Assembly (NCBI RefSeq): GCF_011045215.1
Contig: NZ_CP049201.1
Reading direction: 5' to 3' (one strand)
Source of the DNA: Escherichia coli
GTDB taxonomy: Bacteria; Pseudomonadota; Gammaproteobacteria; Enterobacterales; Enterobacteriaceae
DNA: 64,000 bases
This document shows, in pieces, positions 2,888 through 52,779 of the stretch. The notes under the pieces are model-generated. The model was not told the origin of the DNA and searched no databases. It saw only the letters and a program-made list of their open reading frames with translations. Position 1 is the stretch's first letter. Every line of letters starts with the position of its first letter. A program made the position numbers and the translations under genes.

Positions 2888-4367
2888 CACCATTCCGTCG
2901 AATACGCTGGTTCCGTTGTTTTATGCGGAAATGGATAACTCGGCGGCGAATACTGCACAGGACAGCGGAGCATCGCTGCTGATTGGTCATGCCAATAACG
3001 GTGCAGAGATTGTTGCCAACAGTCTGGTACTGATGCCGTCGGCAGACTATGCACGCCAGATTTGTGGTGCGGGAAGTCAGCTGGCGCGTATGGTCGAGGC
3101 TTATCGCCAGACCGACCCGTTTGGTGAGCTGTATGTGATTGCCGTTCCTGAATCCACAGGCGCGGCGGCAACGGTTACGCTGACGGTGACCGGGGCGGCA
3201 ACCGAAACCGGCACGGTGAATGTCTATGTGGGACGTACCCGCGTGCAGGCTCCGGTGACCAACGGCGATAACGTCACGACGATTGCCAGCAGTATCAAAG
3301 ATGCCATCAATGCCGTTCCGGCCCTGCCGTTTACGGCTTCATCTTCGGCAGGCGTGGTCACACTGACCGCGCGTCATAAGGGGCTTTGCGGGAATGAAAT
3401 TCCTGTCAGCCTCAATTACTACGGCTTTGGTGGGGGCGAAGTGCTGCCAGCGGGCGTACAGATTGCCGTGGCGACGGGTACCGCCGGAACGGGTGCTCCG
3501 GTTCTCACCGGCGCGGTGGCTGCAATGGCGGATGAGCCGTTTGATTATATCGGCCTGCCGTTCAACGACACGGCCTCCGTTAACACGCTGATGACCGAGA
3601 TGAACGATACCAGCGGTCGCTGGAGCTATGCGCGTCAGCTGTATGGTCATGTGTATACGGCAAAGATCGGCACGCTGTCAGAACTGGTGACCGCAGGTGA
3701 CCAGTTTAACCAGCAGCACATTACCCTGGCGGGGTACGAAAAAGAGACCCAGACGCCTGCCGACGAACTGGCGGCAAGCCGTACCGCCCGCGCAGCGGTG
3801 TTTATTCGCAACGATCCGGCACGTCCCACGCAGACCGGTGAGCTGGTGGGTATGCTGCCTGCGCCGAAGGGGAAACGGTTCACGATGACCGAACAACAGA
3901 CCCTGCTGTCTCATGGCGTGGCAACGGCGTATGTCGAAAGCGGGGTACTGCGCATTCAGCGTGATGTCACCACGTACAGGAAAAACGCTTACGGGGTTGC
4001 GGATAACAGCTACCTAGACAGTGAGACTCTGCATACCAGCGCGTATGTACTGCGCAAACTGAAATCCGTCATTACCAGTAAGTACGGGCGTCACAAGCTT
4101 GCCAGTGACGGTACCCGCTTTGGTCCCGGTCAGGCGATTGTCACCCCGGCGGTGATCAAAGGGGAACTGCTGGCAACCTACCGTCAGCTTGAGCGTGCGG
4201 GGATCGTGGAAAACTACGCACTGTTTAAGCAGTACCTAGTTGTGGAGCGTGATGCCAGCGATCCGAACCGCCTGAACACGCTGTTCCCGCCTGACTATGT
4301 TAACCAGTTGCGTGTCTTTGCCGTGGTTAACCAGTTCCGTCTTCAGTATTCAGAGGAGTCCGCATAA
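2871..4367 (+). CDS. phage contractile tail sheath protein
   Basis: 498 aa; size and sequence character typical of Mu/P2-type sheath proteins; followed by tube and chaperone genes. Confidence 0.9.
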   Translation: MTISFNTIPSNTLVPLFYAEMDNSAANTAQDSGASLLIGHANNGAEIVANSLVLMPSADYARQICGAGSQLARMVEAYRQTDPFGELYVIAVPESTGAAATVTLTVTGAATETGTVNVYVGRTRVQAPVTNGDNVTTIASSIKDAINAVPALPFTASSSAGVVTLTARHKGLCGNEIPVSLNYYGFGGGEVLPAGVQIAVATGTAGTGAPVLTGAVAAMADEPFDYIGLPFNDTASVNTLMTEMNDTSGRWSYARQLYGHVYTAKIGTLSELVTAGDQFNQQHITLAGYEKETQTPADELAASRTARAAVFIRNDPARPTQTGELVGMLPAPKGKRFTMTEQQTLLSHGVATAYVESGVLRIQRDVTTYRKNAYGVADNSYLDSETLHTSAYVLRKLKSVITSKYGRHKLASDGTRFGPGQAIVTPAVIKGELLATYRQLERAGIVENYALFKQYLVVERDASDPNRLNTLFPPDYVNQLRVFAVVNQFRLQYSEESA

Positions 4368-22349: not shown

Positions 22350-22561
22350 GTATCGAGTACAGCCAGCTTTGACAGTGATGGCCAGATAAAAGAAAACCCT
22401 CTCACCGGAACGAACAAGAAACGATAAGAGGGTTTATCAGGAAGATGATTCTACGTGATGAATTATACCGAGAAACAACCGATGCTTACCAGCAAAAACG
22501 CGTCACTGTTTGTGCAGCTGGCACCGTCCGATCTGACGGTGTTTTCCGGAATGGTAAGGAG

Positions 22562-22753
22562 CTATTCCTTTGCCTTTTTGCGCTGTTCTGCTTTCAGCTT
22601 GCGCCCGCAGGCATCCAGCACCCAAGCGGAAAAACTTGAACCCGGATTATCGACTTTTTCGCGTTCTACGCAGGCATCAATTTCTGCGATCATTTCATGC
22701 GGGAAGCGTATTCCCTTGTATGTTGTTTTGCTGTTTATGTGGTTTTTAGTCAT
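22562..22753 (-). CDS. putative small DNA-binding regulator (ribbon-helix-helix-like), about 63 aa
   Basis: MTKNHINSKTTYKGIRFPHEMIAEIDACVEREKV... has RHH-like strand-helix character; divergent from the downstream operon with operators between; start codon uncertain (M15/M24/M33 of the track ORF). Confidence 0.45.
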   Translation of the reverse strand: MTKNHINSKTTYKGIRFPHEMIAEIDACVEREKVDNPGSSFSAWVLDACGRKLKAEQRKKAKE

Positions 22754-22769
22754 GCTGGAAACTCTTAAG

Positions 22770-22870
22770 TGTTTAAACATCAGTAAAGATACAGTAAAGC
22801 CGGACATAACAAAACTGTTTAAACAAAATCTGTTGACTTGTTTAAACACTCAGCATAATGTGTTTAAACA
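22770..22870. promoter_or_regulatory. operator array: four copies of the palindrome TGTTTAAACA within divergent promoters
   Basis: Exact copies at 22770-22779, 22816-22825, 22839-22848 and 22861-22870; TTGACT (22833-22838) and CATAAT (22854-22859) hexamers interleave with the right-hand pair. Confidence 0.6.
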
Positions 22871-22960
22871 GTTTGCTACGTTGCAAACTGAAAAAACGAA
22901 GCCCGGCAGTGTTGACGCACTAACCGGGCCTCTGACCAACACGTTATTAGGAGTAACGCT

Positions 22961-23164
22961 ATGGCTAGCCATCAGTGTAACCAAACTCGCCCTAAAAATC
23001 GCCTATTTCTCTTTCTCGCGGTATCACGGGCCGACATGCAGGACAAACCACACCGCGAACAAATCACCGCGTACAGCGAACAGGAAGCCCGTTCCATGCT
23101 GGCCGGTCGCTTTATCCTCTGCTTTGCTGGCCGTCTGCCGGTTCAGGAGGTGCACCATGTTTAA
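22961..23164 (+). CDS. hypothetical protein (67 aa), first gene of the coupled operon
   Basis: AGGAG 7-8 nt upstream of the ATG; stop overlaps the next start (ATGTTTAA). Confidence 0.4.
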   Translation: MASHQCNQTRPKNRLFLFLAVSRADMQDKPHREQITAYSEQEARSMLAGRFILCFAGRLPVQEVHHV

Positions 23165-23405
23165 CCCACTGGACAACCGCAAAGCGGCGGCGCTTAACCC
23201 GTTCCACGATGACTGTTACGATCCGCCAGCCTTTATTAAACCGGGTTCAAAAGTAGTGGTTGAAATTGATTCCCGGGAAATGGAGGTCGCTATTCTAGCC
23301 GCTTATGACTACGGACTGGACGCGCTGAACGACGATGGCCGGGAAGAGCTTAACCGCTTAATTGCTGACCTGAAAGACAAGATAACGGAGGCGCGGTATG
23401 CATAA
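23158..23405 (+). CDS. hypothetical protein (82 aa)
   Basis: Strong SD (caGGAGGtg) before the ATG at 23158; acidic protein; the rest of track ORF 22455-23405 is rejected. Confidence 0.55.
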
Positions 23406-24580: not shown

Positions 24581-24643
24581 TTTTTTGTATTCCGCGCCGC
24601 CCGCTGCGGCGCATTGTCTTACCCATTAATAAAGGTCATACCG

Positions 24644-27376
24644 ATGCAAGGTAAAAAAGTTTCACAGACAGCAGGACGCGCGGCGGGCCAGTGGGAAAAT
24701 ATTCTTGAACACCTGGGGATTACTGTTCCTGCGGGTGGTCTTCATGGCCCCTGCCCGATCTGCGGCGGTAAAGATCGTTTTCGCTTTGATAATAAAAAAG
24801 GGCGTGGAACCTGGTTCTGCAACCAGTGCGGCCACGGTGACGGGCTGGATCTGGTCAAACTGGCGCTTTCGCTGGACACCGGGCCAGCCGCTGATCGAGT
24901 TGCTGAATTACTTCCGGCCCTTCCTCCGCCTGCGGTCATGCAGCCTGCCAGAAAAGAAGCCAGTGACGAAGGTCGCCCACATGACTACTGGCAACGCCTC
25001 TTTGCCCGTACTCAGCCGGGGGAAAGCCCTTACCTTACGGCGCGGGGGCTGACAGGTTTTGAACTGCCGCTGACCGTTCAGGAGATGAAAACCGCTGGCG
25101 GTGTTTTTCCGGCTGGTTCGCTTTTATTACCGATCACGGACACCGAAGGACGGATGACCGGTGCACAGCTTATCGGCCCGGACAAGGTAAAAGGCTTATG
25201 TGCTGGCACCAGGAAAAAAGGGCGTTTTATCTCTGTCGGGCCGTTCCCGGAGAAAATGCCCGCGCGGATCATTATCTCGGAAGGCTTTGCCACTGCGTTA
25301 AGCGCATCCCTGCTTTCAGAGGGCTGGAGTATTGCGGCGCTGGATAAAGGCAACCTGAAAGACGTTGCGGAGCAAATCCGCCAGAAATGGCCGGACGTGC
25401 AGATCGTTATTGCCGGTGATAATGACTTTTCTGACGGTAAACCCAATCAGGGGAAAGAGTCTGCGATCAAAGCTGCACTGGCCGTTAAGGGATGGATGAC
25501 CATTCCTCCCGGACGGATCAAAGTTGACTGGGATGATTACCGCCGTGAATTTGGCCTCCAGCGCGCCCGTGACGCATTCGCGGAAGAACTGCTTAACCCG
25601 GCAGACACCGAAACGCGTTTACCGCATGGTTTCCGCCTGACGAAGGATTATCTTTGGTTTGATCGCCCGCTCAGTGACGGTAGCGAAAGCGGCCAGACTC
25701 GCCAGGTGAAGATATGTAGCCCGCTCAAAGTGACGGCCATCACCAGCGACGGCGAAGGCGGTAAATTCGGGCGTCTGCTTGAGTGGGAAGACTCCAGCGG
25801 ATTACGGCATGAATGGGCGATGCCAATGACAGTGCTTGCCGGAAGCGGTCAGGAGCTGCGGGAGGTTCTGCTTGATAACGGAATGCACTTTATCAGCGTG
25901 AACGGCGCGGCGCGTAGCTATCTGATGGAATACATTTCTAACTGTCGCCCGGTTCGCCGCGTCACCTGCGTTGAAAAAACAGGCTGGTTTAGCGGTGCGT
26001 ATGTTCTCCAGGATGAGGTGATCGGCAGCGATGCCGGATCGGTCATCCTCCAGTCTGCTATGTCGTCTAAAAATGACTTCCGGGTGAGCGGAACGGTGGC
26101 GGAATGGGCGCAACACGTCGGGCGCTATTGTGCCGGAAATTCCCGCCTGGTGTTCTGCGTCAGTCTGGCGCTGGCCGCGCCGTTACTGAATATTATTGGT
26201 GTTGGCGGCGGCGGTTATCACCTTAAGGGCGAATCCACGGACGGCAAGACAACCACAATGAAGGTAGCGGCGTCTGTCTGCGGCGGGCCTGATTTCTGGA
26301 AAACGTGGCGGGCAACCGGAAACGCGCTGGAAGGTATTGCGCTACGCCGTAATGATGCCGCCCTGATGCTGGATGAAATCAGCGAAGTTGACGGCAGAGA
26401 GGCTAGCCGGATCGCCTATATGCTGGGGAACGGGCAGGGCAAAGCAAGGGGGCGCGTTGATGGCAGCGTCCGCGATCCGGTGACCTGGACATTGCTTTAC
26501 CTGTCCACCGGGGAAATCTCTATTGCGGAACATGCCGCCGAAGCCGGAGAAAAGCGAACCGGCGCGGGTGTCGGTGTGCGTATGGTGCAAATCCCCAGCG
26601 ATACCGGAAAACATGGCGCTTTCGAAAATCTCCACGGCATGGAAGGCGGTAAAGCGTTTGCGGAATACCTTGAACAGACCTGTAAACAATATTACGGCGC
26701 GCCGTTCCGCGAATGGTTGCGCTGGCTGGCGGCAAATCTGACGGAAACCGCGAACCGGGCGCGGGCAATGAAAAAAGAGTATGAACGGACATTATTACCC
26801 GAAGATTCCGGCAAGCAGGTTGGGCGCATTGTGGATCGCTTTGCACTGTTGGCCGTTGCGGGGGAACTGGCGAGTGAAGCGGGGATCACAGGCTGGCAAC
26901 CAGGAGAAGCGTATAACGCTGCAAGAAGCTGTCTGGCGGCATGGCTTAACGATCGTGGACATGCGGCCAACCAGGAAGAAGCCGACGCGCTGGAGAAGGT
27001 GCGGCGCTTTATTACGGCCAATCAGTACACACGCTTTGCTGACTGGTATGACGAGAAAAACCGCCCGTCAAATATGGTTGGCTTTCGCCGGGTGGAGAAA
27101 GGCGGGAACGGTATTGGCATGAGCAAAAAGGAGAACAGCGGCGATACTGTTAAAGACGGGGACGCCACTAAAGAGCCGGAAACCACATTTTATATCCTGC
27201 CCAGCGGATGGAAGGAAATTTGCGGGACGTCGGACAGCGTTAAAACGGCGAGACTATGCGACGAGGCTGGATGGCTTGTAAAGGATGAAGATCGCCAGCG
27301 CCTACAACGTACAGTAAGACTACCGGAAATTGGCTTAAAGAAAGTGTATGTGTTCAGCGGCGAAGTGATCGGATAA
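24644..27376 (+). CDS. P4 alpha-type DNA primase/helicase (zinc-binding, Toprim and P-loop helicase domains)
   Basis: CPICGGKDRFRF...WFCNQCGHGDG zinc motif; Toprim-like IISEGFATALSA...IAGDNDF; Walker-type region further downstream; true start ATG 24644 (the track ORF begins at a TTG). Confidence 0.9.
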   Translation: MQGKKVSQTAGRAAGQWENILEHLGITVPAGGLHGPCPICGGKDRFRFDNKKGRGTWFCNQCGHGDGLDLVKLALSLDTGPAADRVAELLPALPPPAVMQPARKEASDEGRPHDYWQRLFARTQPGESPYLTARGLTGFELPLTVQEMKTAGGVFPAGSLLLPITDTEGRMTGAQLIGPDKVKGLCAGTRKKGRFISVGPFPEKMPARIIISEGFATALSASLLSEGWSIAALDKGNLKDVAEQIRQKWPDVQIVIAGDNDFSDGKPNQGKESAIKAALAVKGWMTIPPGRIKVDWDDYRREFGLQRARDAFAEELLNPADTETRLPHGFRLTKDYLWFDRPLSDGSESGQTRQVKICSPLKVTAITSDGEGGKFGRLLEWEDSSGLRHEWAMPMTVLAGSGQELREVLLDNGMHFISVNGAARSYLMEYISNCRPVRRVTCVEKTGWFSGAYVLQDEVIGSDAGSVILQSAMSSKNDFRVSGTVAEWAQHVGRYCAGNSRLVFCVSLALAAPLLNIIGVGGGGYHLKGESTDGKTTTMKVAASVCGGPDFWKTWRATGNALEGIALRRNDAALMLDEISEVDGREASRIAYMLGNGQGKARGRVDGSVRDPVTWTLLYLSTGEISIAEHAAEAGEKRTGAGVGVRMVQIPSDTGKHGAFENLHGMEGGKAFAEYLEQTCKQYYGAPFREWLRWLAANLTETANRARAMKKEYERTLLPEDSGKQVGRIVDRFALLAVAGELASEAGITGWQPGEAYNAARSCLAAWLNDRGHAANQEEADALEKVRRFITANQYTRFADWYDEKNRPSNMVGFRRVEKGGNGIGMSKKENSGDTVKDGDATKEPETTFYILPSGWKEICGTSDSVKTARLCDEAGWLVKDEDRQRLQRTVRLPEIGLKKVYVFSGEVIG

Positions 27377-29495: not shown

Positions 29496-29741
29496 ATGCA
29501 ACACGTAAACTATACCGATGCTCGACAGCATTTAGCTGACCTGATGCAGCAGGCTAATGATGATCGTGCGCCAATCCTGGTTACGCGTAAGGGTGCTAAA
29601 AGCGTAGTAATGATCGATGCGGAAGAGTTCGCATCGATTCAGGAAACGTTACACCTGTTCAGTAACCCGGCGAACGCCGCACACATTGAAGCCAGCCTTG
29701 CATCGCTCGAACGCGGCGATTATGAGGAACTGGACATTTAA
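29496..29741 (+). CDS. type II antitoxin, Phd/YefM family
   Basis: 81 aa; ...RAPILVTRKGAKSVVMIDAEEFASIQETLHLFSNPANAAHI... matches the YefM pattern; 1-nt overlap with the toxin gene. Confidence 0.85.
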   Translation: MQHVNYTDARQHLADLMQQANDDRAPILVTRKGAKSVVMIDAEEFASIQETLHLFSNPANAAHIEASLASLERGDYEELDI

Positions 29742-30001
29742 TGAAAGTCAGGATATCCCCGCAGGCAAAAGGCGATCTTCAGTACTGGGCTGAGAATGAC
29801 CCAAAGACGTATAACAAGGTAATGGAGCTAATCAAATCGGCTAAGGAAAGCCCCTTCAAGGGGATAGGGAAGCCGGAGGCGCTAAAGCATCGTAAGCCGC
29901 TTTGGTCACGTCGAATCACGAAAGAACATCGCCTGGTGTATTACGTTGAGCAAGGCGATCTGTACATTGTTGCGTGTCGCTATCACTACACCACGATTTA
30001 A
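29741..30001 (+). CDS. type II toxin, YoeB/Txe family mRNA interferase
   Basis: 86 aa; ...GIGKPEALKHRKPLWSRRITKEHRLVYYVEQGDLYIVACRYHY is the conserved YoeB C-terminus. Confidence 0.85.
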   Translation: MKVRISPQAKGDLQYWAENDPKTYNKVMELIKSAKESPFKGIGKPEALKHRKPLWSRRITKEHRLVYYVEQGDLYIVACRYHYTTI

Positions 30002-30320: not shown

Positions 30321-31220
30321 TTAAGCCAATTGCTGCCGCCATTCCTTAACGTGGTCAATCAGAGCGCGGAGCTTTGGTGCAATATTGCGACGCTGTGGGA
30401 AATACAGATAGAAGCCCGGAAATTGTGGAAGAAAGTCATCAAGCAGAGATACAAGCTTACCGCTTTCAATATATGGCCTGAAAGTTTCCTGAGTGGCAAT
30501 TGTTATTCCTCCGCCGGCAAGAGCCAGCCTCAACATCAGACGCAGATCATTAGTCGTAATCTGTGGTTCAATCGCAAGGTCGAAAGCTCTCCCGTTTTCT
30601 TCAAATGGCCAGCGATAAGGCGCAACATCCGGGGATTGACGCCAGCCGATACACTTATGATTCACAAGTTCACGCGGATGAACAGGTGTGCTGTTGGCTG
30701 CGAGATAGGAGGGAGAGGCAACGACCATTTCACGCTGACTGCCGGTAAGGGGCACAGCAATCATGTCTTTTTCAATGACCTCTCCGAGCCTTACGCCAGC
30801 ATCGTAACCTGCGGCCACGATATCGAATTCCTCATCCGTGACAACAATATCAAGCGTAACGGCTGGATTGGCTGCTGCAAACGAAGCGATTAGCGGACCT
30901 GAAAGAAATTCTTCAGCTATTGACGTCACTGCGATTCTGAGAAGTCCACGTGGTACATGATCAGAAACCATCTCTTCGAACGCTGTCTCAATACCGGATA
31001 AAGGTAATGACAGCGATTTATGCAGCCGTTCTCCTGCTTCTGTCAAATTAACTGAGCGCGTGGTCCGCATTACAAGCATTGTCCCGAATGCATCTTCAAG
31101 GCGTCTTATTCCCTGACTGACCGCTGAACGGGTAACGCCCAGCCGTGCGGCGGCTTTACTGAAATTACTCTCTTCTGCTACCGCGATAAAAATGGGTAAA
31201 AGATTAAGATCGATTTTCAT
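30321..31220 (-). CDS. LysR-family transcriptional regulator
   Basis: 299 aa; N-terminal HTH (...FSKAAARLGVTRSAVSQGIRRLE...) and LysR substrate-binding region; divergent from the SDR gene. Confidence 0.85.
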   Translation of the reverse strand: MKIDLNLLPIFIAVAEESNFSKAAARLGVTRSAVSQGIRRLEDAFGTMLVMRTTRSVNLTEAGERLHKSLSLPLSGIETAFEEMVSDHVPRGLLRIAVTSIAEEFLSGPLIASFAAANPAVTLDIVVTDEEFDIVAAGYDAGVRLGEVIEKDMIAVPLTGSQREMVVASPSYLAANSTPVHPRELVNHKCIGWRQSPDVAPYRWPFEENGRAFDLAIEPQITTNDLRLMLRLALAGGGITIATQETFRPYIESGKLVSLLDDFLPQFPGFYLYFPQRRNIAPKLRALIDHVKEWRQQLA

Positions 31221-31318
31221 TGTTTAATGCCGCTAACCACTGAGTACATTGAAAGCAGGATACTGGAACCAATCATAAAGTTCTATTCTCTCTCCGAACA
31301 CATTTGAAGGAGAACGTA

Positions 31319-32041: not shown

Positions 32042-32254
32042 AGAATAACTTTTACATTCACGTTTTATTAAATAGGTCAGAAGGAAGATTTATATATCCC
32101 TGTGTTTTTCATAGCAAGATGCATTATGTATTGCTCACCCCGAAGGAGATGAAGGTTTAATTACAGAAAGATTATTTTCACAGGAAGTAAACATGACTCA
32201 TGTTTAATGCCTTTATATATAAAACTCATCCTCTCAATTGTCAGGAGAATTAGC

Positions 32255-32485
32255 ATGAATACTATCTGTTCTTTAATTGTTGTGGTTACACTGTCTTTAT
32301 TATCATTCAGTAGCGTCGCCAAAACGATTACTGCCGTCGGTTCAACCATTGACAGCACTGAAAAAGAAATTTCTTTACAGGCAGAAAAACAAGGGAAATC
32401 ATATAAAATTCTGGGCGCGTTTTTTAAGAACAGAGTTTATATGATAGCAAAGTTAACACCAGTCAGTAAAAATGATGCTTCATAA
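32255..32485 (+). CDS. DUF1471 (YdgH/BhsA/McbA-like) small secreted protein
   Basis: Signal peptide MNTICSLIVVVTLSLLSFSSVA, about 76 aa; CAGGAG SD 8 nt upstream. Confidence 0.55.
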   Translation: MNTICSLIVVVTLSLLSFSSVAKTITAVGSTIDSTEKEISLQAEKQGKSYKILGAFFKNRVYMIAKLTPVSKNDAS

Positions 32486-32769
32486 GGCTCATGGTATAAT
32501 TTTAAGACATGATCAAGAAGCACGTCTATTGATTCAAAATTATCATTATGATGGAAATGGAATGCCCGACAAATGACGCTACACCCACCTTCTGTACCAG
32601 TCGTTCTGCTAATTCTACCGATGCTTCGGTCTGGAGTAGTAAAGTAATATTGGACACAGTTTTATTTTCTCTCTTTTTCGAGGGCTGTATATCAACAGGA
32701 AGAATACATCCCTAAGCGGTTAATGCTGGCGTAATCAATAGACCAGCATTAATCACAGATGATTACCAA

Positions 32770-32842
32770 TCAGACAGAAATGGTTAAATCGTCGAATTCA
32801 TATTTAATACGTTTTCTTACGCCGCTGAACAGCTTGAAAAGG
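32770..32842 (-). pseudogene. remnant of an rpmJ-paralog (ykgO-like) 3' end
   Basis: Closely similar to the ykgO 3' end and its downstream flank at 51391-51470 (encodes ...AVQRRKKTY* versus ...AVQGRKKKR*); the upstream coding sequence is missing. Confidence 0.45.
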
Positions 32843-32908
32843 ATGCATATTTTAAATATCAGTGAAATGAACAGTTTATTGCCGTTATTAATAGAAATGG
32901 AGGGATAA
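32843..32908 (+). CDS. putative 21-codon small ORF (MHILNISEMNSLLPLLIEMEG), copy A
   Basis: AAAAGG-ATG; conserved with copy B at 52160-52225 inside a 120-bp repeat of about 90% identity. Confidence 0.3.
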   Translation: MHILNISEMNSLLPLLIEMEG

Positions 32909-33185
32909 ATACGCGTATTCTACTGTTGCAACAAAAACAACGATATTGATCGGTTTTCATAATGAAGTAACCTGACAGATATAAAAATGTTGATTGAGGC
33001 TAAATTCCCGGATGAAGGTTGTTGAGGGAGCCAGGTAGTTTTTTCTTTTGGGTGATCTCCATTGCTGGATAGTCCCCTTGTACAGATAAGTCCGCTCTTT
33101 CTCGCTCAAAGCGGCCCCTGGAATTGAACGCAGAGTGACTACCTGACACAATATTGCACAGTGAAGAGTCGGTCGTTGTTAACGT

Positions 33186-34070
33186 TCAGATTTTCAATGT
33201 ATCAATGACCATCCGCAGAGCGGGGGAGACGTTGCGATGAGGGTAATAGAGAAACAATCCCTCCAATCGCAGGCTGTAACGCTGCAACACTCTGATAAGC
33301 TTACCGTGTTCTAAATCATCCGCGACCAGTTCAACAGGAACATAGGCCAACCCGAGGCCCAGCCGGGCTGCTTCTGCTTCCATATAGCTGTCGGATAGGG
33401 CCCATTGCCCTTCAGGGCGATGAGTGATTTTTTTATCATCCTGATTGAGTTCCCACTGGTATACGCTGCCGTCGGCAAACTGATAGGCGATACAGGGATG
33501 CGCCTTTAAATCCGCCGGAGTTTGCGGAAAACCATAGCGACGAAAATGTTCCGGAGTCCCCACAATTGCCATCTCCATATCGGGCGTGATGCGTACCGCG
33601 ACCATACCCTGGCCGACTTCAGGCCCCAGGCGGACACCTGCATCGAATCTTTCCTCGATGATATCGACGAACCGGCTCTCATTTATCAGTTCAAGCCGGA
33701 TATCAGGATATCGCTGTTTAAATACCGCCAGCTTTGGCAGCAGGCATTTATCAATCGCATGCTGGCTGGCATTGATGCGCACCGTGCCGGAGGGCGTCTC
33801 TCGATAGTGCGCCAGCGTGGCAAGCCCAAGATCTAACATTTCAAATCCAGATGCCGTCTTCTGGTAGAGCTGCTCGCCTGCTTGCGTCAGAGACAGTTTA
33901 CGCGTGGTGCGCACCAGCAGCTGGACGCCCAGCCTTTCTTCAAGCTCGCGAACAGAACGGCTGACTCCTGACTGCGCAAGACCCAGCCGTTTAGCCGCTG
34001 CGGTAAAACTGCCTTCTTGCACCACCTGCATAAACAGGTACAGCTCGTTGTAGTTCTCCCTTTTCGCCAT
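33186..34070 (-). CDS. LysR-family transcriptional regulator
   Basis: 294 aa; HTH ...FTAAAKRLGLAQSGVSRSVRELE...; divergent from the hydrolase/MFS genes. Confidence 0.85.
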   Translation of the reverse strand: MAKRENYNELYLFMQVVQEGSFTAAAKRLGLAQSGVSRSVRELEERLGVQLLVRTTRKLSLTQAGEQLYQKTASGFEMLDLGLATLAHYRETPSGTVRINASQHAIDKCLLPKLAVFKQRYPDIRLELINESRFVDIIEERFDAGVRLGPEVGQGMVAVRITPDMEMAIVGTPEHFRRYGFPQTPADLKAHPCIAYQFADGSVYQWELNQDDKKITHRPEGQWALSDSYMEAEAARLGLGLAYVPVELVADDLEHGKLIRVLQRYSLRLEGLFLYYPHRNVSPALRMVIDTLKI

Positions 34071-34235
34071 TGAAACATCCCCCCTTCATGCCGGCAATCT
34101 TCGCATTAATTTATAACAATATGGTATTAATCTTAGCATTAATCGCCCCCTAATCAGCACTAATTCTGCTCACTATAATGACCCCATCAAAGTAAAGCAC
34201 CGCAGCGTTGTCCGTCGGAAACCTGTATCTCTCTG

Positions 34236-35393
34236 TTGTTTTTTATGGGGATTTTTATGAAAGCCTTCACCCGAACGCTAAAAACCGCGATGCCGGCCAT
34301 GCTGCTTTTCGCATCATTAAGTGGAGTCACGACAATGAGTTATGCTGATTCAACCAATCCTAATGCCCCTGTGTCCATGACAGATAAATGGGATAAAACG
34401 TTCGCCGAGAGCCAGAAAGTCGATCATCGTAAAGTATCGTTCCCGAACCGATATGGCATCACCTTAGTGGGCGATCTTTACCTGCCTAAAGACCGTGGCG
34501 ATCGCAAGCTGGCGGCGATTGCGGTCAGTGGGCCATTTGGCGCGGTGAAAGAGCAATCCAGCGGCTTGTATGCGCAGACGCTGGCGGAACGAGGGTTTGT
34601 TACCCTGGCGTTCGATCCTTCTTACACCGGGGAAAGCGGCGGCTATCCGCGAAACGTCGCCTCACCGGATATCAACACTGAAGATTTCAGCGCGGCGGTG
34701 GATTTCTTAGGGCTGCAAAAAGAGGTAGATCGCAACCGTATCGGGCTGCTCGGTATTTGTGGCTGGGGTGGCATGGCGCTGAACGACGCGGCGATGGATA
34801 CCCGCGTTAAAGCGGTTGCTACCAGCGTGATGTATGACATGAGCCGGGCGATGGGCCATGGTGTGGGGGATGGCGAAGACCGTTATTCTACCGCCGACCG
34901 TCGTGCTGTTCTGCAATATCTGAATGAACAGCGCTGGAAGGATGCGCAGAGCGGAACGTTCGCTCACGGTGGTCATGATATTAATGTCGATAGCAACGGC
35001 AAGGTCAGTGCGGGCGAGCGCATTCTGCCAGAAACGCTGCCGGCAAATCCTCATCCGGTACTGAAAGAGTTCTTTGACTACTATCGCATGCCGCGCGGCT
35101 TCCACGAACGTTCCGTTAACTCTACCGGGGCGTGGACGGCAACGATGCCGCTGTCATTTATGAATATGCCGCTGTTGAGCTACGCCAGTGAAATAACCAT
35201 TCCGACGCTGATTGTGACCGGTGAGAAAGCACATTCACGCTATTTTGCTGAAGATGCTTACAAGGCGGTTGGCAGTAAAGACAAAGAGTTGGTGGTGGTA
35301 CCAGGAGCAAATCACGTGGACCTGTACGATAACGTGGCCGGAAAAATACCTTTCGCGAAGTTCGAACAATTTTTCCAGACCAAACTGAAATAA
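34236..35393 (+). CDS. secreted alpha/beta-hydrolase-fold protein
   Basis: Signal peptide (MKAFTRTLKTAMPAMLLFASLSGVTTMSYA) and GxCGWGG nucleophile-elbow-like motif; start may be 34257. Confidence 0.7.
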   Translation: MFFMGIFMKAFTRTLKTAMPAMLLFASLSGVTTMSYADSTNPNAPVSMTDKWDKTFAESQKVDHRKVSFPNRYGITLVGDLYLPKDRGDRKLAAIAVSGPFGAVKEQSSGLYAQTLAERGFVTLAFDPSYTGESGGYPRNVASPDINTEDFSAAVDFLGLQKEVDRNRIGLLGICGWGGMALNDAAMDTRVKAVATSVMYDMSRAMGHGVGDGEDRYSTADRRAVLQYLNEQRWKDAQSGTFAHGGHDINVDSNGKVSAGERILPETLPANPHPVLKEFFDYYRMPRGFHERSVNSTGAWTATMPLSFMNMPLLSYASEITIPTLIVTGEKAHSRYFAEDAYKAVGSKDKELVVVPGANHVDLYDNVAGKIPFAKFEQFFQTKLK

Positions 35394-51176: not shown

Positions 51177-51404
51177 ATGCAGGCTGCGCCGCAAAGGGAG
51201 GAGACTGAGTGGCGTGTTCAGTCTAAAAGAGAGTTGATGCCAGCATACAGGGGCGAAGCTGGTCAACAAGTCAACATTAAGATAATGGAATATTCGGAGA
51301 GAAACGTCAGGCAGTTGGCCTCAAATGAACAGGAAGAATATATCCGCAGGAAAATTAATGTTGGTGTTATAAACACACCAACATTAAACCGATCTGATTA
51401 TTAA
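51177..51404 (+). CDS. hypothetical small protein (ykgL-position ORF)
   Basis: ORF between ecpR and ykgO; first ATG at 51177 (track ORF begins with GTG 51171); no motif recognised. Confidence 0.3.
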   Translation: MQAAPQREETEWRVQSKRELMPAYRGEAGQQVNIKIMEYSERNVRQLASNEQEEYIRRKINVGVINTPTLNRSDY

Positions 51405-51438
51405 TCAGACAAATATCGTTAATTCGTCGAATTTTAAA

Positions 51439-51579
51439 TCAACGTTTTTTCTTACGACCCTGAACGGCCTTAAAACGTGGATTAGATTTACAAATCACAT
51501 ATAGCCGTCCTTTTCGCTTCACAATCTGACAGTCTGGATGGCGTTCTTTTGCGGTACGAAGAGAGTTAAGAACTTTCAT
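51439..51579 (-). CDS. ykgO: ribosomal protein L36 paralogue (zinc-independent type), YkgO/RpmJ2
   Basis: 46 aa [46 protein letters not shown]; ATG overlaps the ykgM stop (ATGA); below the ORF-track size cut-off. Confidence 0.85.
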
Positions 51580-51842
51580 CACGCCCCCTTTTTCGTGCTA
51601 ACAAAACGACCAAAACGTTGGGTGAATCGTGCAACATTTCCTTCTGATGCCACTGTTCTCAGCTTCCCTGTATAGAACGGGTGCGATTTAGAAGAGACAT
51701 CAATTGTCACGTATGGATACGTTACGCCATCCAGCTCAATCTCACGGTCTGTTTTGATAGTCGAGCCGATTTTAAAGTACTCATCAACACTGGTGTCGTG
51801 GAACACCACAGTACGATACTCAGGATGGATATTGGGTTTCAT
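51579..51842 (-). CDS. ykgM: ribosomal protein L31 paralogue type B, YkgM/RpmE2
   Basis: [59 protein letters not shown]...; start taken at the ATG for MKPNIH. Confidence 0.85.
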
Positions 51843-51853
51843 CATTTTCACCT

Positions 51854-51871
51854 GTTATGTTATAACATAAC
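51854..51871. promoter_or_regulatory. Zur box upstream of ykgM-ykgO
   Basis: Perfect 18-bp palindrome GTTATGTTATAACATAAC, 12 bp upstream of ykgM; matches the Zur operator form and the known Zur control of this operon. Confidence 0.7.
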
Positions 51872-52159
51872 CGTAAAGATACATGCTCATCCGGATCATT
51901 TCAACACCCAATCCCTGTGACCCTTTGTGGATGTGGAATTTCCGCAACGGGGAACTCTGGCATTGTTAGCAGCCGTTGGCGACGCTCCCATAAACGCCTG
52001 GATGAGTGATTGATGATGGTTTTGCTGAGAGTATGGATTTTTCGAGAATGGAGGTTATCTCCACTTTACTGGCCGATGATTTATCGCAGTATGATTGATT
52101 ACCTGACAGCGTGTATTCCTCTCCCACGGATATAATAATTACTTACAAAAAGGGAGAGG

Positions 52160-52225
52160 ATGCATATTTTAAATATCACTGAAGTGAACAGTTTATTGCC
52201 GTTATTAATAGAAATGGAGAAATAA
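52160..52225 (+). CDS. putative 21-codon small ORF (MHILNITEVNSLLPLLIEMEK), copy B
   Basis: GGGAGAGG-ATG; the peptide is conserved with copy A despite nucleotide substitutions. Confidence 0.3.
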   Translation: MHILNITEVNSLLPLLIEMEK

Positions 52226-52779
52226 ATAGGCGTATTCTACAATTGCGACAAAAACAACGATATTAATCAGTTTATGACTGATTTGTTGTACTTTATTCTC
52301 TTTCATTGGTACTTCCTCGCTTTAAAAAAGAGCGCACTTCGTAAGTGCCCTTATATAAATAACGAGTTTGGTCAACCAATTTTTTGACATGTATCACAAA
52401 TTTGAATAGATGTATTACATCGGCTATCTTTTATTGCACCAACGTCATTGATATATGTCGCCTGAAGTCAGTTCCGGGAATGAGTCTGATCTCAAGACTG
52501 GCCCAGTCCTGGCGTTGATTGGCGCTGAGGAGCATATCGCATCTCATTATAATGTCGTATCTCCTGGGGTGTTATACAAGATATCGTTGTTGGTAACCTG
52601 GGCGAGGAATTGAGCTCTATTAAACCGTCAACTATGCCGGATACATACTGGATTACACTGAAGGCACGCCTTATGAGAGAACGTGCCGCAGTGACGGGTT
52701 AATTATCTGAAAGAATTTGTGAGGCTGTATCGGTTACTCATTGATTTGATAGTTTTACTCTCGGGAGAGTAATAGATAT

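Follow-up and report, generated by a model that had tools for sequence, protein, structure and literature searches.

An unannotated inverted repeat of Escherichia coli as a probable relic of the stem-loop between ykgL and ykgO

Introduction

In E. coli K-12 MG1655 a curated RNA 3′ end was mapped by Term-seq to position 312325 of the + strand (PMC7815308). It was detected in LB at OD 0.4 and in M63, was classified as lying within ykgL and antisense to ykgO, and received a Rho score of 0.91 (“No”) and an intrinsic-terminator score of 2.35, below the threshold of 3 (PMC7815308). The ykgL-ykgO pair is also found in the list of convergent overlapping transcription pairs (PMC12288877). The terminator of the ykgM-ykgO operon itself is the subject of no statement in the published Zur/L31p study. 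Stem-loops without a U-tract form a described class of RNA 3′ ends: such elements (REP elements and the processed 3′ ends of PMC7815308) halt 3′-to-5′ exonucleases after downstream, often Rho-dependent, termination.

The present work deals with an inverted repeat from an intergenic region of an E. coli genome. It is located at 32720–32752 of a stretch of 64,000 nucleotides, which was analysed as a whole and is called the window below. This repeat is designated copy A, and its homologue in the same window is designated copy B.

Results and Discussion

Sequence and predicted fold of copy A

The window is Escherichia coli-like, and the locus is 98–100% identical to E. coli genomes. The order of genes in near-identical RefSeq loci is as follows: a LysR-family gene, an SDR oxidoreductase, a small hypothetical protein (hyp), an unannotated gap with the repeat, a partial ykgR pseudogene, a second LysR gene, an alpha/beta hydrolase and an MFS transporter. 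The repeat is found 235 nt beyond the hyp stop on the + strand and ~430 nt beyond the stop of the LysR gene 33186–34070 on the − strand. The original prediction described it as a perfect 10-bp inverted repeat with a 13-nt loop, situated between genes and followed by no T-run on either strand. Reading of the arms demonstrates that they are complementary throughout (Table 1); the identical sequence carries no annotation in RefSeq E. coli genomes, which agrees with an intergenic position; and the tails are TCACAGATG on the + strand and CCGCTTAGG on the − strand. The consensus scan gives no terminator-like site at the repeat on either strand, so the statement that it is not a canonical terminator also holds.

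The stem is AT-rich, with 4 G-C pairs out of 10. Its apparent loop is formed by the decayed upper stem and the loop of an ancestral 13–14-bp hairpin: the upper part consists of a 2×2 internal loop, then 2 bp, then a 5-nt loop, and on the − strand the internal loop is 1×1 with a G·U. The predicted RNA fold of a 66-nt stretch with copy A has an energy of −18.6 (+) and −21.6 (−) kcal/mol with z about −3.5. Within 32400–33250, the scanned region that spans the hyp-LysR intergenic space, no local structure on either strand is more stable than copy A.

The symmetry of the repeat, taken alone, is not beyond chance expectation: perfect 10-bp inverted repeats with loops of 3–20 nt are expected ~1.1 times in 64 kb of shuffled sequence, and the window contains 8 distinct ones. 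This expectation is what a chance inverted repeat with neither history nor function would have in its favour. Such an origin is refuted by the homologous copy, which has the same spacing and flanks and is present both in the window and across Escherichia, so that its probability is practically nil. The repeat is non-random because of its homology to the second copy and its presence in related loci. The small ORFs over or near it (32548–32715, 32759–32908, ykgL and hyp) gave no families in the Pfam scan, therefore no hidden gene accounts for it.

Two other repeats of the window may be mentioned. Within the hyp coding sequence, in its 3′ part at 32398–32445, there is a further perfect inverted repeat of 10 bp (ATCATATAAA / TTTATATGAT), whose arms are separated by 28 nt. 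The self-complementary 10-mer TGTTTAAACA occurs four times, at 22770, 22816, 22839 and 22861, the last three copies being ~22–23 bp apart. This array (22770–22870) is inside or adjoining the ORF 22455–23405 and upstream of a 920-aa ORF (24614–27376), and it looks like iterons or operators of an integrated mobile element.

Table 1. Features of locus A and of the intact ykg locus in the window.
Feature	Position	Strand	Description
hyp	32207–32485	+	Escherichia-restricted small secreted-type protein; BhsA-like according to one source; without Pfam match
Block X1-A	32691–32840		Homologue (74%, blastn) of the ykgL 3′ end, hairpin and ykgO 3′ end at 51325–51475
Copy A, left arm	32720–32729		TTAATGCTGG
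Copy A, 13-nt “loop”	32730–32742		CGTAATCAATAGA
Copy A, right arm	32743–32752		CCAGCATTAA
Small-hairpin remnant	32760–32772		5 bp, TGATT/AATCA; 7 bp in copy B at 51393–51409
ykgO (rpmJ2, L36 type B) remnant	32804–32842	−	Last 12 codons and stop: PFQAVQRRKKTY-stop
ykgR-region segment	32840–32956	−	91% to 52157–52273; directly abuts X1-A
Truncated ykgR′ pseudogene	32888–32956	−	N-terminus missing; partial PGAP annotation in near-identical loci
LysR-family regulator	33186–34070	−	
ykgL ORF	51177–51404	+	Convergent with ykgO; contains hairpin B
Copy B hairpin	51355–51387	−	13-bp stem TTAATGTTGGTGT/ACACCAACATTAA, 7-nt loop, tail TTTTCCTGCG
Intact ykgO (L36 type B)	51439–51579	−	
Intact ykgM (L31 type B)	51579–51842	−	
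Zur-box-like palindrome	51852–51873		Upstream of ykgM; the sole such site in the window; absent from copy A
Hairpin downstream of ykgR	52119–52160	−	CCTCTCCC...GGGAGAGG
Intact ykgR	52205–52306	−	33 aa

Homologous hairpin at the intact ykg locus

The search of the window with the arm sequence revealed another inverted repeat whose arms are likewise 13 nt apart (TTAATGTTGG, 13 nt, CCAACATTAA), which had been overlooked in the original prediction. This copy B is embedded in the 3′ end of the ykgL ORF. On the − strand the terminator scan accepts it (13 pairs, 7-nt loop, tail TTTTCCTGCG), and in the ykgO-sense (−) RNA the hairpin is followed by UUUUCC. The stop codon of ykgO occupies 51439–51441, which places the end of the hairpin (51387) 51 nt past the stop. 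The same distance is found at locus A, where the stop codon of the ykgO remnant is at 32804–32806 and the hairpin ends at 32752. The “rpmJ-like remnant” beside the repeat, as it had been called, is genuine: the − strand at 32804–32842 translates to PFQAVQRRKKTY followed by a stop and aligns with the YkgO C-terminus. Repeat and remnant belong to one decayed block, which the original prediction had not recognized.

The homology between the two loci is divided into two segments. The first one (A 32691–32840 vs B 51325–51475; 74% over 155 aligned positions with ~150 nt per copy, blastn E = 4e-20) contains the ykgL tail, the hairpin with its smaller neighbouring hairpin, and the final codons of ykgO. 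The second one (A 32840–32956 vs B 52157–52273; 91%, blastn) corresponds to the ykgR region. The segments abut at locus A and are ~680 bp apart at locus B. In copy A ykgM is wholly absent, as is the Zur box, ykgO is lost save for its last 12 codons, and of the hairpin downstream of ykgR just the last 3 nt are left at the junction; together the loss comes to ~680 bp.

Copy A is accordingly a second, decayed copy of the stem-loop between the convergent ykgL and ykgO. It was carried along in a ~270-bp fragment with the ykgL tail, the hairpin, the last 12 ykgO codons and part of ykgR, and this fragment is without the ~680 bp listed above, the hairpin downstream of ykgR being the putative ykgR terminator.

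RNA 3′ ends of K-12 at the hairpins

The K-12 sequence at hairpin B is the same as that of copy B. The 3′ end at 312325 (+) falls 3 nt beyond the equivalent MG1655 hairpin (312290–312322), so that in K-12 a + strand RNA demonstrably ends at hairpin B. On the − strand it is likely the intrinsic terminator of the Zur-repressed ykgM-ykgO operon. We infer this second role from the anatomy and the consensus scan, since the operon is off (Zur-repressed) in the Term-seq media.

The hairpin downstream of ykgR (52119–52160, −) coincides with a very strong “orphan” Term-seq 3′ end at MG1655 313047 (−) with a read count of 48,378, and this hairpin is probably the ykgR terminator. It was lost in the deletion that gave rise to copy A. 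As for ykgL itself (MG1655 312112–312339), the 312325 (+) end is 14 nt before its stop codon; such transcripts would therefore be without a stop codon. The ORF has no Pfam family, and the E. albertii sequence diverges at ykgL. Taken together, these observations raise doubt about ykgL as a true protein-coding gene.

Hairpin family across species and alleles

Eighty ykgM-ykgO loci from other species were retrieved by the YkgM protein, a choice unbiased as to the hairpin. In all 80 of them ykgO directly follows ykgM. A homologous AT-rich hairpin is found among these loci in Escherichia only (E. albertii L006 and also L007). In other genera the sequence downstream of ykgO is unrelated, and several of them carry GC-rich canonical terminators. 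The T-run after the stem is confined to the E. coli B alleles; it is present neither in E. albertii and L007 nor in any A copy. The arms of the A type are identical to those of E. albertii, so the A-type arm sequence would probably be the ancestral one.

The alleles differ at stem pair 7. Read on the − strand, copy A and E. albertii have C-G at this pair, the K-12 allele has U-A, and B2, a common E. coli allele, has U·G; stem pair 12 is G-C or A-U. B2 apparently stands between the C-G and U-A forms, and it is roughly as frequent as the K-12 allele: it accounts for 43 of 120 metagenome hits and fits the 90–95% identity class of ~2,200 complete genomes. The B2 hairpin, TTAATGCTGGTGTAATAAATACACCAACATTAA (L087 and 42 other metagenome contigs), has C·A on the + strand and U·G on the − strand at pair 7. 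The metagenome scan used a pattern with 14 of 20 arm bases fixed and served for allele discovery alone, not for measurement of conservation. It returned ykg-type loci and 3 unrelated chance hits.

Among 13 alleles 88.7% of cells are paired vs 25–54% in slid controls, and two pairs are changed on both sides. Most alleles of this alignment were fetched by the pattern fixing 14 of 20 arm bases, and the covariation test over them did not exceed shuffle controls, as 88 of 500 shuffles reach the observed percentage of paired cells and 118 of 500 reach the covariation score. The covariation is hence modest support and not proof of pairing, and statistical support is not claimed. The non-Watson-Crick cells comprise 9 G·U on the − strand vs 1 on the + strand (by lineage, six events vs one), a strand bias across alleles that is suggestive only.

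Conservation of copy A

A-type copies are present in ~912 of 5,426 complete E. coli genomes, O157:H7 included, and B-type copies in 5,060. For the analysis of conservation the copy A loci were found via the neighbouring hyp protein, which is unbiased as to the hairpin, and were compared with the window. The repeat is retained in nearly all homologous loci examined, so conservation in related genomes, which the original prediction had named as the check on the palindrome, is observed. The hairpin is identical in L214–L219 at a flank divergence of 2–5%, and in L001 and L213 one loop base is different. In L004 and L222 (flanks ~8.5% diverged) one terminal arm base is changed, giving C·A on the + strand and G·U on the − strand. 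In L206–L208, with flanks diverged by 5.5%, two right-arm substitutions break the stem. The most diverged loci, L209 and L220 (flanks ~17%, ykgR intact), have 0 of 20 arm bases changed and 1–2 loop changes, and in L209 the loop change adds an 11th pair, C-G. Absence of the palindrome from homologous loci, which would have spoken against it, is thus not what is seen, the arms surviving in most of them, including the ~17% diverged clade.

In the 33-nt hairpin of L209 and L220 there are 1–2 differences vs ~5.5 expected (P about 0.02–0.07), which hints at continuing constraint instead of free decay and, like the unchanged arms, speaks against a mere relic. Summed over independent lineages, 3 arm changes are seen vs ~6.6 expected (P about 0.1). 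The junction of an AbiE/RT island takes away 4 of 10 left-arm bases (L003 and 5 metagenome contigs). By these comparisons copy A is usually retained and is dispensable in at least two lineages, and selection on it is not demonstrable.

In the island haplotype (L003, E. coli JMK_KBN3987, 3091–4011 and 4001–4122; also L115, L120 and L133) the LysR-SDR-hyp side gives way to an island that encodes AbiEi/AbiEii and a reverse transcriptase. The junction of this island is inside the left arm (...GAGAGGGTGCTGG...), and the AbiEii frame ends on the TAA of the hairpin loop.

This position of the junction is one reason to consider a cruciform or quasi-palindrome that acts at the DNA level, attracting rearrangements or island junctions, with its symmetry kept by template-switch correction and not by selection. 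The locus does border a highly variable region, and arm changes on both sides could come from intrastrand templating. However, just one type of junction is found, the other block boundaries (32691, 32840 and 32956) are away from the repeat, and B2 (~2,200 genomes) has an imperfect palindrome with C·A on one strand, which means that the symmetry is not restored. The rearrangement explanation is therefore very improbable.

The original prediction offered a protein-binding palindrome or an RNA structure. The RNA half of it gains from the homologous 3′ stem-loop of ykgM-ykgO, the terminator scan and the K-12 3′ end. The protein-binding half finds no support: copy A is not a Zur box, is situated in neither LysR promoter region and is older than its present neighbours. 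A duplex-DNA site of a dimeric regulator, e.g. Zur or one of the flanking LysR-family proteins, would have perfect symmetry over 10 bp and LysR-family genes on both sides to its credit, but its half-sites would be 23 bp apart centre to centre, and it would be placed 235–430 bp beyond the gene ends, outside the divergent promoter regions 31220–31304 and 34070–34236. The same hairpin exists beside ykgO in genomes without these LysR genes. The window search for the Zur box (GAAATGTTATAWTATAACATTTC-type palindrome, up to 3 mismatches) hits 51852–51873 only and not copy A. Finally, arm changes are tolerated as G·U on one strand, which is the signature of an RNA and not of a DNA site. Regulator binding is thus hardly credible, and the protein-binding, DNA-rearrangement and chance readings are improbable even when taken together.

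Origin of the two loci

In the single-copy haplotypes L004, L117, L209, L220 and L222 the A-type block is directly followed by intact ykgR and the K-12 ykgR-flanking genes, without ykgO and ykgM. As judged from this arrangement, the A-type block looks like an old allelic form of the locus lacking ykgOM. Genomes like the window have both forms owing to the ~18.4-kb block (LysR ... pao ... ecp ... ykgL-ykgO-ykgM-ykgR), presumably joined inside ykgR.

The ~18.4 kb (LysR, hydrolase, MFS, pao, yagU, ykgJ, ecp, matA and ykgL) lie between the direct partial repeats 32691–32956 and 51325–52273, and the single-copy haplotypes are without the whole block. Such an arrangement suggests either that two allelic haplotypes were joined within ykgR or that the DNA between the repeats was deleted.

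On the other side of the locus, a pair of YefM (Phd) antitoxin and YoeB toxin genes (29496–30001; Pfam E = 2e-22 and 8e-29) is directly left of the LysR-SDR-hyp genes. In strain PapRG-06-5 (L001) thrW is ~130 bp from the LysR gene of this side. ARAGORN found no tRNA in the whole window, although thrW is close in PapRG-06-5; hence there is extra DNA between thrW and the locus here.

Possible role of copy A

Copy A is probably a relic of a terminator stem-loop and at most a passive 3′-end stem-loop. It cannot act as a canonical terminator, because its U-tract is gone and its upper stem is mismatched. Any transcript running across it, whether hyp read-through (+) or LysR/ykgR′ RNA (−), would still form the fold (~−18 to −21 kcal/mol), and copy A could at most play a passive role in which 3′-to-5′ exonucleases would be blocked and a 3′ end fixed, as happens to + strand RNA at hairpin B in K-12. 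Most likely, copy A persists in this genome as a leftover that serves no dedicated role. This reading is preferred since the former client genes of the − strand are gone (ykgO and ykgM) or truncated (ykgR′). We infer that the function of copy A is passive or absent.

It is also conceivable, with a clearly lower probability, that the relic has been re-used as a functioning U-tract-less RNA 3′-end hairpin for the ykgR (−) and hyp (+) mRNAs. The hairpins of block X1 are the first stable structures downstream of ykgR (−) in the single-copy A-type haplotypes, where ykgR is intact but deprived of its own terminator hairpin, and also downstream of hyp (+); they would set the 3′ ends of both mRNAs and stabilise them. 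At the deletion junction one arm is missing from the ykgR hairpin with the strong K-12 3′ end 313047; on the + strand an RNA 3′ end without a U-tract is located 3 nt beyond hairpin B; and copy A is the strongest local fold in 32400–33250. The unchanged arms (0 of 20) at ~17% flank divergence in L209 and L220, where ykgR is intact, and the 11th C-G pair gained by L209 would fit as well. Against this, the ykgR′ beside copy A is truncated in the window and without its promoter side, which leaves no − strand client. The two arm changes tolerated in L206–L208, the partial loss of the left arm in the AbiE-island haplotype and the summed arm changes (~6.6 expected vs 3 seen, P about 0.1) likewise count against re-use, and the loop is as conserved as the arms, unlike what selection for pairing alone would give. 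That a terminator hairpin without its operon was kept and re-used in the ykgOM-less haplotype as a 3′-end stem-loop for ykgR (−) and the BhsA-like gene (+) is, on the sequence data, a rather doubtful proposal. If true, it would explain the unchanged arms of the ~17% diverged clade, would make copy A a two-strand 3′-end module travelling with the variable thrW-ykg region and would offer a modest example of new neighbouring genes taking over the relic of a terminator.

With the relic reading, an unannotated palindrome of about 900 of 5,426 complete E. coli genomes is explained as part of a decayed ykgL′-hairpin-′ykgO-ykgR′ block, and a probable terminator of the Zur-regulated ykgM-ykgO operon is put forward. 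The change of a stem pair from C-G through U·G to U-A among natural alleles is a small, clean example of its kind. Copy A itself adds one more example to a well-known kind of element and matters little beyond annotation.

Comparison with known elements

Copy A shares with Rho-independent terminators a stable stem-loop just past a (former) stop codon, and its paralogue or ancestor fits the consensus. Unlike them, it has no U-tract, its stem is AT-rich and its apparent loop of 13 nt exceeds the usual 3–8. The predicted fold is stable, yet its AT-rich stem of 10 bp encloses a 13-nt loop or internal loop, and the consensus scan is silent at this site. A U-rich tract 3′ of the stem is found on neither strand of copy A, and in copy B it is found on the − strand.

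Several other classes were considered. A search of both copies against Rfam 15 at permissive thresholds produced sub-threshold chance hits only (snoRNA models and the S15 leader), none of them on the repeat. REP/BIME elements were rejected, as no REP consensus is present and there are two copies per genome, both at ykg loci. A LysR operator was rejected too: the repeat is 235–430 bp past the gene 3′ ends, its arms are 23 bp apart centre to centre, and a promoter dyad with T-N11-A-type spacing is not seen. The Zur box, the operator of ykgM and znuABC, is similar as an AT-rich palindrome of the ykg region with an ATG(T/C)T...A(A/G)CAT flavour, and differs in spacing and sequence.

Hairpin B on the + strand behaves like the U-tract-less 3′-end stem-loops: the RNA ends 3 nt after the stem, is not Rho-scored and has an intrinsic score below 3. 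The predicted + strand stability of copy A is equal to that of hairpin B.

The closest relative of copy A is thus the Escherichia family of hairpins downstream of ykgO, with which it has in common the hairpin, homology in both flanks and the fixed 51-nt position. In comparison with copy B it keeps the 33-nt frame and the flanks, is likewise accompanied by the small hairpin and stands equally 51 nt past the ykgO stop; in the arms one pair is different, being altered on both sides. Copy A departs from copy B in having 10 bp instead of 13–14, the − strand tail CCGCTT instead of TTTTCC, and no operon or Zur box, both of which are deleted in A. With the pseudogene blocks of the thrW-ykg variable region copy A shares the partial ykgR′ annotated by PGAP, the ykgO tail and the deletion junction; unlike in such blocks of gene remnants, the hairpin in the block of copy A is better preserved than its coding neighbours.
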